64,000 nucleotides of DNA. Origin: a bacterium (GTDB lineage Bacteria; Patescibacteriota; Minisyncoccia; Phycocordibacterales; GCA-002787175). Shown in pieces: positions 1 through 13,322 of the stretch (the stretch's first letter is position 1; every line of letters begins with the position of its first letter). Location of the stretch: contig JAUYKQ010000010.1 of NCBI GenBank assembly GCA_030699905.1, positions 2,554-66,553 of the forward strand, in the 5' to 3' direction. Below the pieces are notes generated by a model. That model was not told the DNA's origin. It saw nothing but the letters and a program-made list of their open reading frames with translations, and did not search any database. The position numbers and the translations under genes were made by a program.

Positions 1-938
1 AGCTGACTATATCGGTAGAATCCCAGGGAAGCGGATTATCGCGGATAAAAACGCAGATGAACGCTGATTGGGACAATACCGAGGGAAGATTTGTGTACTA
101 AATAGTGGGAAACAGGACAATGAATAAATTCCTTCTGGAACTGCGTGCGTTCGGATACGTTCGGCCGTACACCCTTAAATGGGAAGCATCCAGATGTTCC
201 GACTTGAATTTATTTAGGCATGAGTGCTGGTGCCATGCTGTCTTGATCGTTCATCGACCCACTAAGGAGGAATCACCACCCTGCGCAGTATATTCCTCCT
301 TCCTACTATTTAGTACATGAATCGCCCGTAGAGACTAAACGTCAGCCACCCTAAACAGCATGTGTTCGGGTGAAGCTATAGTCCGATCCTCTGAAGTAAT
401 TCAGAGAGACAGGCAGAAATGTCCTGTCCGCGTTTCAGATTCGGGTATGATTCGGGATCGTCTTGATTCGAGTCAATTCGGATTTGTTTACGGAGTAACA
501 AGATGCGTAAGACAGGTTGGTCTCCTATCTACTGCAGGCGTTGATTCTTGAAGGGAGTCATCCCTAGTACGAGAGGACCGGGATGAACTGACCTCTGGTC
601 TACCTGCTGTTCCCGCCAGGGGCAACGCAGGGTAGCTATGTTGGGAGTGGATAACTTCTGAAAGCATCTAAGAAGGAAGCCAACCCTAAGATTAGGAATC
701 GAGCGTGCGAAGCACGCAGTTCATCAAGTTGAAAGTTCATAAAGTTGTAAAGTTTATAAAGTAAAAACAAAATTTTCTGTTCTTACTTGATAAACTTGAT
801 AAACTTTTTACTTTACAAACTTGTGATTTGCGCGCTTCGCGCGTGAAGGCCCGTGGCAGATGACCACGTTGATAGGCACCAGGTGTAAGCGTCGTAAGGC
901 GTTCAGCCGAGGTGTACTAATTCGCCGATTCTATTAGG
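1..938 (+). rRNA. rrl: 23S rRNA, 3' portion (partial at window start). Positions 1-~480 are the 3' part of a group I intron (R-like element cccgtagagactaaacgtc at ~336-352, S-like gaagctatagtcc at ~375-388). Mature 23S sequence resumes by ~500; helix 98 carries a 140-nt insertion (703-843).
   Basis: Sarcin-ricin loop agtacgagaggaccgg at ~560-575. ctgaaagcatctaag and the 3'-terminal gttgataggc...gtaagcg...gtactaat match the conserved 23S domain VI. Positions 1-480 lack the conserved peptidyl transferase centre motifs and contain group I P7-like elements. Confidence 0.8.
703..843 (+). repeat. Hairpin insertion module in 23S H98. GC-clamp mini-hairpins gcgtGCGAAGCacgc and gcgcGCTTCGCgcg flank an AT-rich imperfect palindrome built from ataaagt and gataaactt units.
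   Basis: Directly visible inverted symmetry. The same clamp pair flanks a module in 16S V3 (10861-11005), and a variant flanks one in 16S V1. Confidence 0.7.
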
Positions 939-1099
939 AAACTTGTAAATCCTCCATATCATATTTAATATGATATGGAGAAAACTTAATCCTGTTACAT
1001 GGAATTTGATTTAAGCTACGTAGAGATACGTATGAAAAAAGCATGGCTTTTATGCAGGACAAAAAGGAAATTCAGAGTTGAAGTGCATTTGAAAATCCT

Positions 1100-1345
1100 G
1101 TGTTGGTGATTTAACGCCGTGGGTACACCCGATCCCATTCCGAACTCGGCAGTTAAGCGCGGTAGTGGCGATGGTACCCGGCGCTTTGCGCGGAAGCGGC
1201 AAGGCAAGTTCGTCAAGTTATAAAGTGTAAAGTTCATCAAGTTAGAGAATTTCTTACTTGAAGAACTTGATGAACTTTTAACTTGATAAACTCACTTTGT
1301 CCGCTTGTGAACAAAGCGCCGGGGAGAGTAGCTAGTCGCCAACAC
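1100..1345 (+). rRNA. rrf: 5S rRNA carrying a ~145-nt hairpin insertion (~1178-1322) in the helix IV/V arm.
   Basis: 5' gtgttggtg pairs with 3' cgccaacac. Conserved ccgaactcggcagttaagcgcggtagtggcgatggtac and gggagagtag are present. The inserted sequence is ~90% identical to the insert in 16S at 12984-13082. Confidence 0.7.
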
Positions 1346-1407
1346 AGGGAGTTTAAATTTCAATCTCTTTTTCAATTTCTTGTTTTTCATAAAGCGGATA
1401 AAACCAT

Positions 1408-1432
1408 GAAGCGGACACCCCCGCTTTTTTGT
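1408..1432 (+). terminator. Rho-independent terminator after 5S (stem agcgg/ccgct plus T6).
   Basis: GC stem followed by tttttt. Confidence 0.5.
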
Positions 1433-1456
1433 TATTGAAAATATTGTTATCATATA

Positions 1457-9847: not shown

Positions 9848-11675
9848 AGCCGATACTGCCTTCAAAGGAGAAGGTGTGGACTTTGACAATTAAAACTTGA
9901 AATATTAAAGATTTGAGACGTGCAAGGTCTCAAAGTCTATTCCTTCCCGGCAGTAGAGAATTAAAAATTTTCACTGCGGGAAAAAAATGATTCCACCGGC
10001 TGACTAAGACAGCCGGCAGAGCAAGTTCAAACTCTTAAAACAACAAACAAAATTTCAGCAAAAACTGTCTTTTGTTTTGTTCCGTTCTAAAAATGCAGAC
10101 AAGATGCAAACAAAACTCCGGCGGACGAGGGAGGCAACTCCTCCGTAGGTCGGAGCGATGTAGGCAATAATGTCCTCATTTCTTAAATTAGAGTTTGATC
10201 CTAGCTCAGGATGAACGCTGGCGGCGTGGATAAGGCATGCAAGTCAAGGGTGTGTGCGGAGCACACAGTTTATAAAGTTATAAAGTCATAAAGTTCATAA
10301 AGTCAGAATCTTCTGCTTTACAAACTTTTTACTTTACGAACTTGTAACTTGTGCGCTTCGCGCACAACCGGCAGACGAGGTAGTAATAAGTAGGAATGTC
10401 CCCAAGAGTCAGGCATAGCTACGCGAAAGCGTGGGTAATTCCTGATGGTCTGACCGCATCACATGGAATGTGAATTAAGTTTATCAAGTTCATAAAGTTG
10501 CAAGTTTATAAAGTAAGACCAATGCCGGATTTTTTAGGCTCGCTTTTCTTACTTGATGAACTTTATAACTTTTTACTTTATAAACTTATTTCGCCTCTCA
10601 TGTGATGCGGTCAGTAAAGTCGCAAGACGCTTTTGGAACAGCCTACTCGGTATCAGCTAGATGGTAGGGTAATGGCCTACCATGGCTATGACGCCTAGGG
10701 GGGGTGAGAGCCCGATCCCCACCGATCGGACTGAGATACGGCCGATACACCTACGGGTGGCTGCAGCCGAGAATATTCCGCAATGGGCGAAAGCCTGACG
10801 GAGCGACGCCGCGTGGTTGATGAAGTTCTTAGGAATGTAAAAACCTTTTATTAGGGAGGAAGCGTGCGAAGCACACTGTACATGACACTGATGACACGAA
10901 TGTAAAGAACGAATGACACGAATAAAATTAACAAGACTTGATTTTATTCGTGTCATTCGCATCTTCTATTCGTAGATTCGTGTCGAGTTCAGCGCGCTTC
11001 GCGCGTTTGACGTTACCTGATGAATAAGGGGTTGCTAAACTCGTGCCAGCAGCAGCGGTAATACGAGTGCCCCGAGCGTTATCCGGAATCATTGGGCGTA
11101 AAGGGTGTGTAGGCGGCTTTGTTAGTCCTCTGTTAAATTCTTCGGCTCAACCGGGGTCTTGCAGGGGATACGGCAAAGCTTGAGGGTGTGAGGGGTGAAT
11201 GGAACTCATGGTGTAGGGGTGAAATCCGTTGATATCATGGGGAACACCAAAAGCGAAGGCAATTCACTGGCGCACTCCTGACGCTGAAACACGAAAGCGT
11301 GGGTAGCGAATGGGATTAGATAATCCTTGCCCGCTAATAAAACATAGGCAAAAGGTGTCTCTCCCGAAGGCGACTTCGGGATGAAAATCTAGCTGTATCG
11401 GGGAAACTCTCTGACACTATGCGCTTACTGGCGCGTTGGAGACAATCCCGAGGGAAGTTTTCTTGCATTGAAAGAAGGTTAATTTACCTGCATTGTAATT
11501 CTTGGAGCAATGCTGGTGCGAGTAAGGGAAAAGAAAAACAACTGTCCATAGTCGGAGGGTTGGGTGTTGCGGGGCTATCTGCACATCTCTTTGTCCAGGA
11601 AAAACCACCAACAGAAAGCGTGAGTAATTCGTGAAAGCGTGAATATGTGTCCCTTACTCAATTTGTTCTTTGGGC

Positions 11676-11754
11676 GCGGATGTAGCTCAGTTGGAATGAG
11701 TATCACCTTGATAAGGTGAGGGTCGCAGGGTTCGAATCCTTGCCATCCGCTCCA
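11676..11754 (+). tRNA. tRNA-Ile(GAU)-like sequence embedded in the 5' half of the 16S site-788 intron. Cloverleaf with a slightly long variable/T region; may be a functional tRNA, a pseudo-tRNA or a tRNA-like intron domain.
   Basis: Acceptor gcggatg/catccgc, D-arm gctcagttggaatgagt, anticodon stem tcacc/ggtga with loop ttGATaa, T-loop ggttcgaatcc, 3' tcca. ~70% identical to bacterial tRNA-Ile(GAU). Confidence 0.55.
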
Positions 11755-11871
11755 TTTTTCCGCCGAATTTTCGAAAAATTTGGCACCTTCTTTCAGTGCA
11801 AGACGACCCCGTAGAGACTATGAAATTGAGCAAGATAGTTGGTGCATTTTCTGTCGTAATGCAAAAAATAT

Positions 11872-12639
11872 ATGCAAAACGCGGATTCAAAATATGTGCC
11901 TTTGTCGAATCAAGTGCGAGCCATTATTCTAGGGTCAATTCTTGGAGATGGGTCGCTCAAGATTCAAAACGAGTACGCCAATGCGAATTTACAAATTCGT
12001 CATTCGGAAACTCAAAAAGACTATCTCTTATGGAAAGCGAATGTGCTTAAAGAGATAGCCGGAGATGGTAGTGTGAGCGTGCAAAAGCCGGATGGATACA
12101 GTACGAAGCCAAAGTGGAGGTTCAGGAGCAAGAGAACTCCAGCATTGACCGAACTGCATCATTTGACCTATAAGCACAATGCCTTGCGCATCAGGCGCAC
12201 ATGGTTAAATCAAATGAACGCTTTGTCGCTCGCCGTATGGTGGTGCGATGACGGTTCACTTATTGGCTACGGAGGCAGAAAAGGGGTGTTTTGTACCGAC
12301 GGCTTTGATGAAGAGTCAGTCAAAATACTTGCTCGCTATCTTGGAGTGGTTTGGAACATACGAGCGATAGTTGCTCCTGTCGGGCGAAAGCGCGATGGAA
12401 AGCAAGATCAGTATTGGCGGTTATGGATTCGTTCGCAGGAAGAATTGAAGAAATTTCTGCGTATTATCCTGCCGTACATACCTGTTTCGAGTATGCTCAA
12501 AAAAGCCATTCTACTCTATAAAGACCCTCAATTTCAACAACGCTGGATATCTGAAGTAATCAAGCTAAGTCCTTTTCCAGAATCTGTCATACTGGCGGAA
12601 TTTGAAAAAAAGAAAGCTAAATGGAATTGCTACAGATAA
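11872..12639 (+). CDS. LAGLIDADG homing endonuclease, double-motif, intron-encoded.
   Basis: Motifs LGSILGDGSL and LAVWWCDDGSL. Located inside the 16S intron. Confidence 0.85.
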   Translation: MQNADSKYVPLSNQVRAIILGSILGDGSLKIQNEYANANLQIRHSETQKDYLLWKANVLKEIAGDGSVSVQKPDGYSTKPKWRFRSKRTPALTELHHLTYKHNALRIRRTWLNQMNALSLAVWWCDDGSLIGYGGRKGVFCTDGFDEESVKILARYLGVVWNIRAIVAPVGRKRDGKQDQYWRLWIRSQEELKKFLRIILPYIPVSSMLKKAILLYKDPQFQQRWISEVIKLSPFPESVILAEFEKKKAKWNCYR

Positions 12640-13322
12640 AGATATAGTCCGGACTGCATGGAAACATGTAGAGCGAGGCAGAAATGCCCTCGCCTCCGCA
12701 TCAGGCGGAAGTAACATTTTCAACCCCAGTAGTCCACGCCCTAAACGATGTTCATTTGCTTTTCGGAGTATCGACCCTCTGAGAGGCGTAGCTAACGCGT
12801 TAAATGAACCGCCTGGGTAGTACGGCCGCAAGGCTAAAACTCAAAGGAATAGACGGGGACTTGCACAAGCGGTGGATCATGTGGTTTAATTCGATACTAA
12901 ACGAAGAACCTTACCAAGCCTAGACATCCAAGGGAACTCCAGTAGAAATATTGGAGGCCACCACTTTGCGCGGAAGACGCAAAGTGAGTTCGTCAAGTTA
13001 TAAAGTATAAAGTTCATCAAGTTAGAGAATGTCTTACTTGATAAACTTTAAGAACTTTTGACTTGATAAACTTACTTTGTTCGCTTGCGAACAAAGTGCG
13101 GGGAGGAAGGCGAGGATGACGCCAGATCAGCATGACCCTTTGACGGCTTGGGCTACACACGTGATACAATGGCTGTTACAACACGTTTGCGACGGAGTAA
13201 TCCTGAGCTAATCGTTATAAAAGCAGCCCCAGTTCGGATTGAGGTCTGCAACTCGACCTCATGAAGTTGGAATCGCTAGTAATCGCGGGTCAGCATACCG
13301 CGGTGAATACGTTCTCAAGTCT

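Follow-up and report, generated by a model that had tools for sequence, protein, structure and literature searches.

The 23S, 5S and 16S rRNA genes of the bacterium considered here are interrupted by long hairpins, and the question raised by this locus is whether these inserts form one family, copied from site to site, or grew independently at the tip of each rRNA helix. In the 64-kb stretch of DNA that was analysed (the window), a first reading of the sequence alone had listed six such inserts, and all are present, at most a few bases from where they had been placed, when positions are set by Rfam alignments and by comparison with a module-free relative, L003. The inserts measure 113-165 nt at the six rRNA sites:

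703..843, + strand: H98 module in 23S helix 98, type A; 134-nt insert at model positions 2819-2824 in the Rfam LSU alignment
1185..1315, + strand: 5S module in place of loop D, type B; caps helix IV (1177-1184 pairs with 1316-1323)
10252..10364, + strand: V1 module in 16S helix 6, type A with the upstream clamp variant GCGGAGC; 95-nt insert in Rfam
10450..10614, + strand: V2 module in 16S helix 9, type C; 144-nt insert in Rfam; inverted repeat I2
10862..11005, + strand: V3 module in 16S helix 17, type-A clamps; 132-nt insert in Rfam; inverted repeat I3
12962..13098, + strand: sixth module, 3' junction at 16S helix 40, type B; from alignment with L003, L133 and L135

Anatomy of the modules and state of the 16S gene

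The module copies are imperfect inverted repeats, 113-200 nt long. The outer 15-25 nt on either side form a GC-rich clamp, itself a small palindrome, and between the clamps lie AT-rich 9-nt units in an array, mainly NATAAAGTT. The loop of the 5' clamp is purine (GAA, GGA or GGAAG) and that of the 3' clamp is the complementary pyrimidine (UUC or CUUG). Three clamp types are found in the window, A in H98, V1 and V3, B in 5S and h40, and C in V2 and in a seventh hairpin located in the 16S trailer. In the H98 module, which makes up almost all of a helix whose counterpart in L003 has about 6 nt, clamps GCGTGCGAAGCACGC and GCGCGCTTCGCGCG flank a core of AAAGT 9-mers; the V2 module joins clamps CCGCATCACATGGAATGTGA and CTCATGTGATGCGG to an AAAGT core, and the V3 core differs despite its type-A clamps, being composed of GACACGAAT units. 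The sequence-only reading described a GCGAAGC clamp common to three modules, which is exact upstream in H98 and V3 but reads GCGGAGC in V1.

The sixth module had been assigned to the V6 region; its 3' junction is actually at helix 40, a module site in L133, L135 and L132, and in the alignment of L003, L133 and L135 the relatives' module sits between the CCCCG and CGGGG of h40. The window copy borders on helix 33 at its 5' side, since the window lacks h34-h39:

12932..12961, + strand: h33/type-B clamp junction, at which GGAGGCCAC of 16S h33 directly joins the clamp, marking the missing h34-h39

The window 16S has no equivalent of L003 positions 983-1100 (h34-h39), directly upstream of the h40 module, and neither of the universal motifs GTCGTCAGCTCGTG and CAACGAGCGCAACCC occurs anywhere in the window. 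The missing segment ends exactly at the module boundary, and its loss is probably a repeat-mediated collapse; the gap is thus a probable artefact, or else a real deletion. Since the window 16S is incomplete, assembly may have distorted some of what is seen. Could the modules themselves be chimeric joins or collapsed repeats of a metagenome-assembled contig? The position of the gap, resembling such a collapse, and the Logan contigs, which break at modules, would fit this explanation, but an identical 5S module sequence recurs in Logan contig L002 (run SRR13727534, a separate assembly, possibly of the same reads), unrelated metagenomes (JGI, ENA) supply at least nine contigs with homologous modules at the same sites, and compensatory changes are seen among orthologues. 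On these grounds an artefactual origin of the modules, which we regard as scarcely credible, was rejected.

Downstream of the 16S gene, whose 3' end maps to 15288-15331, lie the seventh hairpin and one strand of a stem that encloses the gene:

10065..10087, + strand: leader strand of the 16S leader-trailer stem, 23 bp; partner 15681-15703
15477..15677, + strand: seventh hairpin, 16S trailer; type C by its clamps, AT-rich core unrelated; from the fold
15681..15703, + strand: trailer strand of the 16S leader-trailer processing stem; partner 10065-10087

Of 20 positions in the 5' clamp of the trailer hairpin, 19 agree with the V2 clamp. The reverse complement of 10065-10087 is found at a single place, 15681-15703, apart from one G-U difference (0 matches in shuffles), and this 23-bp stem was counted towards the processing proposed below.

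Paralogy and distribution of the modules

Twenty copies of the unit AAGTTNNTNAAGT lie in the window, all within five of the modules, against 0.3 in shuffles, and the 5S module is 88% identical over 140 nt to 12964-13103 at 16S h40 (repeat family D1). A covariance model, R1, was built from type-A copies, with V1 and H98 in the training set, and when the window was searched with filters off it matched the six rRNA modules only, the next best hit having E = 0.18. The trained H98 module scored 112 bits, and the four window modules outside the training set gave E-values of 2e-10, 1e-8 (5S), 2e-7 (V2) and 8e-6 (V3, owed to the clamps). Likewise, in an alignment of 13 type-A copies from eight rRNA-operon positions (A2) the clamps are invariant and the clamp-proximal core is conserved, and cross-site scores reach the level of orthologues (125 for V1 of L129 against V2 of L130, 124 for V1 of the window against V3 of L129). 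Judged by their sequences, the window rRNA modules are paralogues of one family. An insertion-element family, and not independent expansion-segment growth, had been proposed at the outset, and this proposal is supported by the cross-site homology, the 5S/16S-h40 identity, the 13-copy alignment and the shuffling described below.

Growth in place, by replication slippage or palindrome expansion of each helix tip with AT-rich low-complexity convergence as the source of the likeness, might be suggested by the tandem 9-mer cores, which expand easily and vary in copy number among orthologues, and by the h17 tip of L003, already a small GC hairpin. However, eight unrelated sites share the same 15-25-nt GC clamps together with the neighbouring CAGTTTATAAAGT and AACTTGTAACTTG segments, the identity between the 5S and 16S sites cannot be convergence, and one pair of modules aligns only in reverse complement. 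Independent growth, contradicted by all three, is very improbable.

Clamped modules were also found in nine metagenomic relatives and in a Roizmanbacterium, always in rRNA genes, leader or trailer; 10 of 10 CPR-type clamp-pair matches in metagenomes fall within rRNA genes or their flanks, and further R1 matches, outside the training set, lie in 23S, leader and trailer. The more distant L003, with the same gene order, has compact rRNAs (16S of 1470 nt, insert-free 5S of 108 nt) and zero modules, and R1 had no match in L003, L153 or L158. As the relatives share the clamps and the syntenic L003 has none, the clamps are not ordinary helices of the lineage, nor are the modules absent from related genomes, either of which would have refuted the earlier reading. 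That reading called the family dispersed, which holds for the unrelated rRNA sites but not beyond the rRNA operons, to which the clamped modules of the clade are confined: no clamped copy was found outside them in about 200 kb of clade sequence, nor the module motif in the non-rRNA parts of the clade loci.

V1 orthologues occupy the same site in L129, L130, L133, L134 and L135, and their stems are as strongly conserved as the rRNA itself between genomes at 84-90% 16S identity. The V1 copy is vertically inherited and conserved, so that recent insertion does not account for all copies. The other sites vary: V2 holds type C in the window, type D in L129 and type A in L130; V3 is occupied in the window, L129 and L134 and empty in L133 and L135, the L134 copy combining type-A clamps with an AAAGT core unlike that of the window; and h40 keeps its type-B clamp with three different cores. 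The V2 module of L129 and the trailer hairpin of L132 align only as reverse complements (score 116 against 40), and in the distant Roizmanbacterium V1 is occupied by a clamped AAAGT module. These comparisons show a shuffling of sites, clamp types and cores from genome to genome.

Fold and fate of the RNA

Folding of the copies, a check put forward together with the six inserts, gave one long rod for every module: the minimum-free-energy fold is a single hairpin, at -45 to -79 kcal/mol for the window inserts (-58 to -62 kcal/mol for H98). The GC mini-hairpins supposed to bracket the modules do exist in so far as each clamp is self-complementary, but the preferred fold pairs upstream with downstream clamp; in the predicted structures the mini-hairpins are an alternative fold, and clamp pairing forms the base of the rod. 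The RNAalifold consensus of six V1 orthologues is likewise a single rod, comprising 43 pairs with compensatory changes in 6, and the rod base of the 13 type-A copies has 21 pairs (98.5% paired, 5 compensatory), with a covariation score that none of 500 shuffles reached. In the window copies the antisense fold is as stable as the sense fold, and hence fold stability gives no sign of selection at the RNA level on these copies.

In the pre-rRNA the two arms of a module are predicted to form one rod of 45-60 bp, placed on a helix which in related CPR bacteria is very short (23S H98, 5S helix IV, 16S h6, h9, h17 and h40, probably also h33a); further copies stand in leader or trailer. The rods would most likely be cut out by RNase III-type double-strand-specific processing, leaving the rRNAs fragmented yet functional. 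Bacterial intervening sequences (IVS) occur in 23S H25/H45 of Salmonella, Leptospira, Campylobacter and Coxiella, more rarely in 16S, are removed by RNase III to give fragmented rRNA, and are regarded as selfish or horizontally spread (PMC4990558, PMC2801512, PMC11270868). The modules resemble them in replacing the apical loop of an rRNA helix by a long duplex and in being sporadic between relatives, but they occupy many sites together (16S, 23S, 5S, leader, trailer), are paralogous across sites with combinations of clamp types and cores, consist of ORF-less tandem 9-mers, include a V1 copy fixed and conserved across a deep clade, and their excision is proposed here by analogy. No RNase III signature motif was found in the 64-kb window, which says nothing on the rest of the genome.

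It has been suggested that short ORF-less rRNA inserts of CPR bacteria are RNase III intervening sequences (PMC11270868). These "uncharacterized short ISs (<200 bp)" of CPR 16S and 23S rRNA genes (Tsurumaki et al. 2024, PMC11270868) share with the modules the organisms, the size class, the position on stem-loop tops and the lack of ORF and intron core, whereas the sequence family, clamps, paralogy and link to an intergenic repeat are described here. The same survey found insertions of at least 100 bp in 0 of 645 CPR 5S genes (PMC11270868), in contrast to the window, whose only 5S gene bears a 131-nt insert. Expansion segments of 5S rRNA, known in Halococcus morrhuae, Halanaerobiales and others, are likewise self-pairing inserts of about 100 nt that leave the core fold undisturbed (PMC7530397, PMC7812874), but they are lineage-specific and unrelated to 16S or 23S inserts, whereas the 5S module replaces loop D and copies a 16S module.

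Such retained 5S segments in other prokaryotes (PMC7812874, PMC7530397) make it conceivable, if rather doubtful, that the modules are true expansion segments, solvent-side rods kept in the mature ribosome with a lineage-specific function, for example binding of proteins or other partners or compensation for the reduced rRNA and proteins of CPR bacteria. The sites h6, h9, h17, h40 and H98 are classic variable or expansion positions, the clamps are invariant across sites, and the V1 module is fixed in six genomes at 84-94% 16S identity, its conserved stem fitting a retained functional segment better than discarded junk. Against retention, identical module types lie in leader and trailer, regions discarded by definition, cores are freely exchanged at V2, V3 and h40, and a near-perfect RNA duplex of 45-60 bp is an obvious nuclease substrate. 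Moreover, a large insert at the tip of 5S helix IV is predicted to be sterically problematic, and a 131-nt rod in the loop D position would probably collide with the docking site of helix IV (PMC7812874).

Spread of the modules

Taken by itself, the AT-rich 9-mer core forms intergenic hairpin repeats that abound in many CPR and Bacteroidota genomes, with more than 120 loci (73 CPR, 23 Bacteroidota/FCB) that match R1 only at model positions ~16-104, i.e. without clamps, and 120 of 128 core clusters outside long ORFs. The module core may derive from this much larger clamp-less family or be common to both. The clamp-less AAAGT hairpins behave like REP/BIME, MITE and Correia repeats, being intergenic, high-copy and in all gene orientations, but they are AT-rich tandem 9-mers instead of a single GC-rich stem, and no GTAG/CGTC tag, target-site duplication or associated transposase was seen. 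A non-autonomous transposon of the MITE or REP/RAYT type, mobilised by a transposase encoded elsewhere that recognises the clamp hairpins, would agree with this high-copy relative, with multiple copies whose palindromic ends are themselves hairpins, with insertion polymorphism between relatives and with the reverse-complement pair. We consider it unlikely: the 11 type-A copies with listed flanks have no target-site duplications, the flanks being mutually complementary instead, no transposase was seen near any module copy, all 13 type-A copies are oriented alike relative to transcription, and clamped copies keep to the rRNA operons in about 200 kb of clade sequence. Without target-site duplications or transposase, the case for calling the modules mobile is one of distribution only.

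Selfish palindromic repeats that invade genes include the Rickettsia palindromic elements and the mitochondrial GC clusters, double-hairpin elements and repetitive hairpin-forming elements (PMC2800124, PMC7218506). Like these, the modules are short hairpin repeats spread within a small genome and tolerated inside essential genes, including rRNA variable regions, but hosts and sequences are different, the clamped modules are restricted to rRNA operons, and their architecture is nested, a palindrome with palindromes in its arms.

The reading that we favour, with moderate confidence, is that of one family of modular palindromic hairpin cassettes, copied at the DNA level, tolerated only in spacers and on the apices of rRNA helices, and probably cut out by RNase III-type processing. 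We infer that copying between rRNA-operon positions may proceed by ectopic recombination, gene conversion or a transposition-like step, that clamps and cores would be reassorted among copies, and that selection would spare copies only where the ribosome tolerates insertion, at helix apices and in spacers. In a CPR/Parcubacteria host with a tiny genome, a single repeat element would thus have spread through all three rRNAs and the adjoining spacer, and hence into the genes that are most conserved in the cell.

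Structure and position of the rRNA modules

All six of the hairpin inserts that the sequence-only reading had placed in the 23S, 5S and 16S rRNA genes are present, with corrections, according to Rfam alignments, folding and comparison with L003, a syntenic relative with compact rRNAs. In these comparisons the apical loop of an rRNA helix is replaced by extra sequence, which Rfam leaves unaligned over 95, 144 and 132 nt in 16S h6, h9 and h17 and over 134 nt at 23S H98, while the 5S insert takes the place of loop D on top of helix IV, where 1177-1184 pairs with 1316-1323. The sixth insert had been assigned to the V6 region, but alignment with L003 and with the module-bearing metagenomic relatives L133 and L135 places its 3' junction in helix 40, and relatives have the arrangement CCCCG-module-CGGGG. 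The sites mapped here (h6, h9, h17, h40, H98 and the tip of 5S helix IV) are variable helices, which we take to be surface-exposed in the established ribosome structures. A seventh hairpin, in the 16S trailer, shares its clamp with the V2 module.

Clamped hairpins of the window, with clamp type
703-843, 23S H98, type A
1185-1315, tip of 5S helix IV, type B
10252-10364, 16S V1 (h6), type A
10450-10614, 16S V2 (h9), type C
10862-11005, 16S V3 (h17), type A
12962-13098, 16S h40, type B
15477-15677, 16S trailer, type C

Minimum-free-energy folding gave one long hairpin for each module, with 45-78 pairs and -45 to -79 kcal/mol, that is, an extended and mainly double-stranded rod, which is also backed by covariation. 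The AAGTTNNTNAAGT unit occurs 20 times in the 64 kb, every time within five of the modules, against an expectation of 0.3. The modules had been read as bracketed by GC mini-hairpins; instead, the upstream and downstream clamps are complementary to each other and form the base of the rod. Across 13 type-A copies this base comprises 21 pairs (98.5% paired, 5 with compensatory changes); among them are position 8:156, which would lie in the "loop" of a mini-hairpin, and pairs that extend past the clamps. Each clamp is palindromic in its own right, so that mini-hairpins can also form locally, with 11 pairs, 2 of them compensatory; covariation is compatible with both structures but backs the rod more strongly. 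The proposed check of folding and covariation across copies supports the rod, both in this type-A base and in the V1 orthologues, where 43 pairs are maintained through six compensatory changes and the degree of conservation in the stems is close to that of the rRNA. The architecture of the module is an inverted duplication of a unit made of a small hairpin and an AT-rich core. Fold energies and G-U counts of the sense and antisense strands are equal for the copies in the window and sense-biased only in some relatives.

A repeat family shared among rRNA sites and genomes

The modules constitute a modular, paralogous palindromic repeat, seated on rRNA helix apices and in spacers, whose copies have been shuffled among sites and genomes. 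The proposal of one dispersed family, rather than independent growth of expansion segments, is borne out by paralogy across sites, by the modules of relatives and by the shuffling of module types. It would have been refuted had modules with these clamps been absent from relatives or had the clamps been ordinary helices of the lineage, whereas relatives carry clamped modules and L003 has none. L003 has an identical gene order (23S-5S-...-SecD-SecF-16S-tRNA) and a SecF that is 58% identical, with a 16S of 1470 nt, a 5S of 108 nt and about 6 nt at H98; being syntenic yet module-free, it indicates that the modules are not native helices. A metagenome scan with the type-A clamp pair returned 24 contigs, 10 of which contain the AAAGT core, and each of these ten lies within a 16S or 23S gene or in the leader or trailer next to it. 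Matches in GC-rich soil contigs (L127, L131, L136-L144, L147, L149, L150) were rejected as unrelated repeats; the GC-rich soil and rhizosphere contigs L127, L131, L136, L140-L143, L147 and L149 have in common a structured repeat of another kind, some 190 nt long, which contains GCGTGCGAAGCAC...GCGCGCTTCGCGC by chance.

The 16S cores of the module-bearing relatives are 84-90% identical to that of the window, and the insertion sites recur (h6 in six of six genomes, h9 in all, h17 in three, h40 in four). Presence is sporadic among relatives, as in the module-free L003, the V2 types and the V3 module, which is found in the window, L129 and L134 and is missing from L133 and L135; the exception is the V1 module, fixed in all six clade members. 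The V2 site holds type C in the window, another type in L129 and type A in L130; type-A clamps at V3 enclose GACACGAAT units in the window and AAAGT units in L134; and at h40 a constant type-B clamp surrounds three different cores. Homologous copies at non-homologous sites were found repeatedly, both by alignment and with R1, a covariance model built from the type-A alignment. The clamps are invariant in 13 aligned type-A copies from eight positions (23S H98, two other 23S sites, one 23S leader, 16S V1, V2 and V3, and one 16S trailer), similarity across sites equals that between orthologues, and the 5S and h40 inserts are 88% identical over 140 nt. The V2 hairpin of L129 matches the 16S-trailer hairpin of L132 only as its reverse complement (score 116 vs 40, 87% over 90 nt), which points to movement at the DNA level. 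In a Roizmanbacterium, a member of a distant CPR lineage (L102, Candidatus Roizmanbacteria PFTH01000130.1, 2628-2745), an AAAGT-core hairpin with GC clamps lies in 16S V1, its clamp loops swapped relative to the window V1 (UUC on the 5' side, GGA on the 3' side), and clamped rRNA modules therefore occur beyond the Parcubacteria clade.

When R1, with H98 and V1 as training members, was searched on the window with filters off, it found the six modules alone, all else having E >= 0.18, and the non-training copies scored E = 2e-10 (h40), 1e-8 (5S), 2e-7 (V2) and 8e-6 (V3). Its further matches on the clade loci all fall within 23S, 16S, leader or trailer, with none in L003, L153 or L158. A regular-expression census of the motif agrees, and by either method no clamped module lies outside rRNA operons in the window or the clade loci. 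No direct repeats flank the 11 type-A copies listed, the flanks extending the helix instead, and no transposase is in view in the 64 kb. The clamped form is multi-copy, as MITE- or REP-like elements are, but it shows neither target-site duplications in these copies nor dispersal in the loci covered, and is unlikely to be such an element. Group I or group II intron identity was likewise rejected, as no module has an Rfam intron match at E up to 1; such matches lie off the modules, at 1-406, 12474-12671, 14009-14078 and 14941-15277. Nor does any known RNA family cover the modules (Rfam, E up to 1, 1-16200), apart from chance plant-miRNA-like matches. A phage vector gained no support, with 0 matches to the clamp pair and 3 to the core in 2.9 million viral contigs.

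We hypothesize that the modules would be copied as DNA, either when hairpins undergo ectopic recombination or gene conversion with one another or in some transposition step, and that copies elsewhere would be purged by selection while those at tolerant apices are spared. The closing helices of 5S helix IV (CCCGGCGC/GCGCCGGG) and 16S h40 (CCCCGCAC/GTGCGGGG) are similar, which hints at microhomology in copying from 16S to 5S.

Several other repeats were noticed. A second palindromic repeat (GGGACTGTTGCC...GGCAACAGTCCC), unrelated to the modules, forms a short hairpin at 1449-1496, downstream of 5S and 5' of a 251-aa ORF at 1502, and a 208-nt intergenic rod of -102 kcal/mol at 34033-34240. Direct repeats of 54 nt (6219-6272 and 6783-6836, 96% identical) surround a small membrane ORF (6333-6731); as relatives have an NAD-dependent epimerase gene there, these repeats may be what a rearrangement left of the 3' end of that gene. 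Three further loci from relatives (L156 9640-9990, L157 1-200, L158 90-400) have a normal 5S followed by a second 5S-like copy, into which between one and three other GC-clamped hairpins (CCTGCCCGCC...GGCAGGCGGG, CCCGCCCGAGCC...) intrude at loop C and at the loop E region; in L156, the one locus of the three that was scanned, Rfam makes no call of the second copy. An AT-rich short motif, TCTCTAATCAATCTCTAATTT, lies beside gene ends or starts at 17016-17036, 18887-18917, 20318-20348 and 24713-24743 and may be a promoter-like or other regulatory element. Two identical intergenic 42-nt hairpins (GGCTCGGGAGTGAAAAGTC...CACTCCTCTCGC) are found 81 nt apart at 63425-63466 and 63506-63547.

The 16S locus, its host and the gap before helix 40

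According to Rfam, the window contains a 23S 3' end (542-930), a 5S from 1101, a 16S fragmented from 10183 and two tRNA-Ile genes, and the protein genes between the rRNA genes include FtsW, glycosyltransferases, SecD and SecF. The next relatives of this SecF, from Parcubacteria/Paceibacterota, are just 56-60% identical, so the host is a CPR bacterium from a sparsely sampled group. Parts of the window, the 5S insert among them, recur without change in Logan contigs of run SRR13727534. An exact-match test revealed a 23-bp leader-trailer stem (10065-10087 with 15681-15703; 22 Watson-Crick pairs and one G-U) that encloses the entire 5.6-kb 16S locus with its introns and modules. The 16S 3' end (15288-15331) reads ...GTCGTGGAATATTTC rather than GGATCACCTCCTT, and thus the anti-Shine-Dalgarno CCUCC is missing; a Shine-Dalgarno motif was seen at none of 17 gene starts inspected in the window, and L003, L133 and L135 are alike in these respects.

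At 12932-13103 the window 16S lacks 118 nt, corresponding to L003 positions 983-1100, i.e. h34-h39, a segment that includes decoding-region sequence conserved in all organisms; two universal motifs of this region, GTCGTCAGCTCGTG and CAACGAGCGCAACCC, occur nowhere in the whole window, and the segment is present in L133, L135 and L132. The gap runs up to the type-B module and stops precisely at its 5' clamp, with the junction GGAGGCCAC|CACTTTGCG. Probably two module copies, one in h33a and one in h40, collapsed during assembly or recombined in the genome; in such a two-module collapse, a type-B module would lead on into GTCGTCAGTTCGT-type sequence. Logan contigs with the intron ORF end about 110 nt past it, without reaching across the gap, and those with SecF and the 251-aa gene likewise end at or near modules.

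Larger insertions were also observed. At 11323-12722, 1.4 kb with group-I-intron-like parts follows GGATTAGATA (about E. coli 790) in 16S and contains a LAGLIDADG_2 ORF (11872-12639) and a complete tRNA-Ile(GAU) with CCA (11676-11754), which differs from the spacer tRNA-Ile at 15843 and whose segment is missing from the otherwise homologous intron of L129. Two more lie near the 16S 3' end: an ORF-less insertion of about 935 nt (13330-14265, around position 1390-1400) has a group II D1-D4 match at 14009-14078, and a group-I-like one of similar length (~935 nt, 14354-15287), with a LAGLIDADG ORF at 14452-15099, interrupts AAGTCGT|AACAAGG. The window itself starts within a group-I-like intron (1-540) that interrupts 23S at about model position 2656, with an Rfam match of 39 bits, under the gathering score.

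RNA fate, the wider core family and significance

Rods of 45-60 bp would be natural substrates for double-strand-specific processing, and we lean towards their excision from pre-rRNA in the manner of intervening sequences (IVS). This reading is favored by the leader-trailer stem enclosing 16S, by the occurrence of the same module types in spacers that are discarded anyway, and by the reported absence of CPR rRNA insertions from transcripts, as is said of work by Brown and colleagues in Nature in 2015. It is also favored by the 5S insert, since so long an insert on the helix IV tip would be expected to collide with the docking site of that helix (PMC7812874). No RNase III signature motif was found in six frames of the 64-kb window, which is one part of the genome. 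The modules resemble RNase III-excised IVS in the replacement of apical loops, the long stem and the sporadic occurrence. Retention in mature rRNA as expansion segments seems the less probable outcome, even though the deep conservation of the V1 copy would suit a functional expansion segment, as would the position of the sites at variable helices.

In their behaviour the modules are similar to the palindromic elements of Rickettsia and the hairpin or GC-cluster elements of mitochondria, which persist within genes (PMC2800124). In the catalogue of CPR rRNA insertions of at least 100 bp by Tsurumaki et al. 2024, short ORF-less non-intron inserts (<200 bp) remained "uncharacterized", with RNase III intervening sequences offered as a tentative parallel, and none of 645 CPR 5S genes had an insertion (PMC11270868). 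The modules described here are those short inserts, and they form one modular repeat family that reaches 5S too; what is new is that IVS-like rRNA inserts form a paralogous, modular palindromic family. Expansion segments of 5S exist in other bacteria (PMC7812874, PMC7530397), where they are unrelated to 16S or 23S inserts, whereas the 5S insert of the window is kin to the h40 module.

A core-only pattern scan of species-representative genomes returned at least 120 loci; among the matches listed, 73 are from Patescibacteria/CPR, 23 from Bacteroidota/FCB, 8 labelled Gammaproteobacteria, 11 unclassified and 5 other. These are tandem-9-mer hairpins without clamps, frequently several per 8 kb, which match R1 only at model positions ~16-104, i.e. 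the core, and have no Rfam family. Among the matches listed, 120 of 128 clusters lie outside long ORFs, and some are in tRNA or rRNA spacers; intergenic dispersal is thus a property of the clamp-less core in other CPR and Bacteroidota genomes. As the hairpins occupy tandem, convergent and divergent intergenic regions, they are not simply terminators. High-copy intergenic hairpins of tandem NATAAAGTT were seen across L007-L126 (e.g. L114, L111, L071, L112); these loci come from many genomes of Saccharibacteria, Falkowbacteria, other CPR and Bacteroidales, and the hairpins number as many as five per 8 kb and often lie at contig ends. No description of a CPR hairpin repeat family was found in the literature searched, and the core is a candidate widespread unnamed intergenic repeat of Patescibacteria and Bacteroidota.

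No known genes evolve more slowly than those for rRNA, on which microbial taxonomy rests. A repeat family copying itself among the three rRNAs would account for the "uncharacterized short insertions" by which CPR rRNA genes become long, difficult to assemble and easily missed by PCR primers, and the window 5S gives CPR its first example of a large insertion in this gene. Repeats of this kind can remove essential rRNA segments, or lead assemblers to drop them, as here for h34-h39. As a tentative and rather doubtful whole, we may propose an undescribed CPR superfamily built on the AAAGT 9-mer core, high-copy and intergenic in most lineages, which in some Parcubacteria and Microgenomates would be GC-clamped and specialised on structured-RNA genes, copying itself among 16S, 23S and 5S helix apices and spacers as a portable double-stranded processing site, with ribosomes whose rRNAs would be broken at five to ten programmed positions, a two-piece 5S included. 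If the rods are retained, the reputedly minimal CPR ribosomes would carry large bacterial expansion segments; if they are excised, ribosomes would be assembled from heavily fragmented rRNAs.
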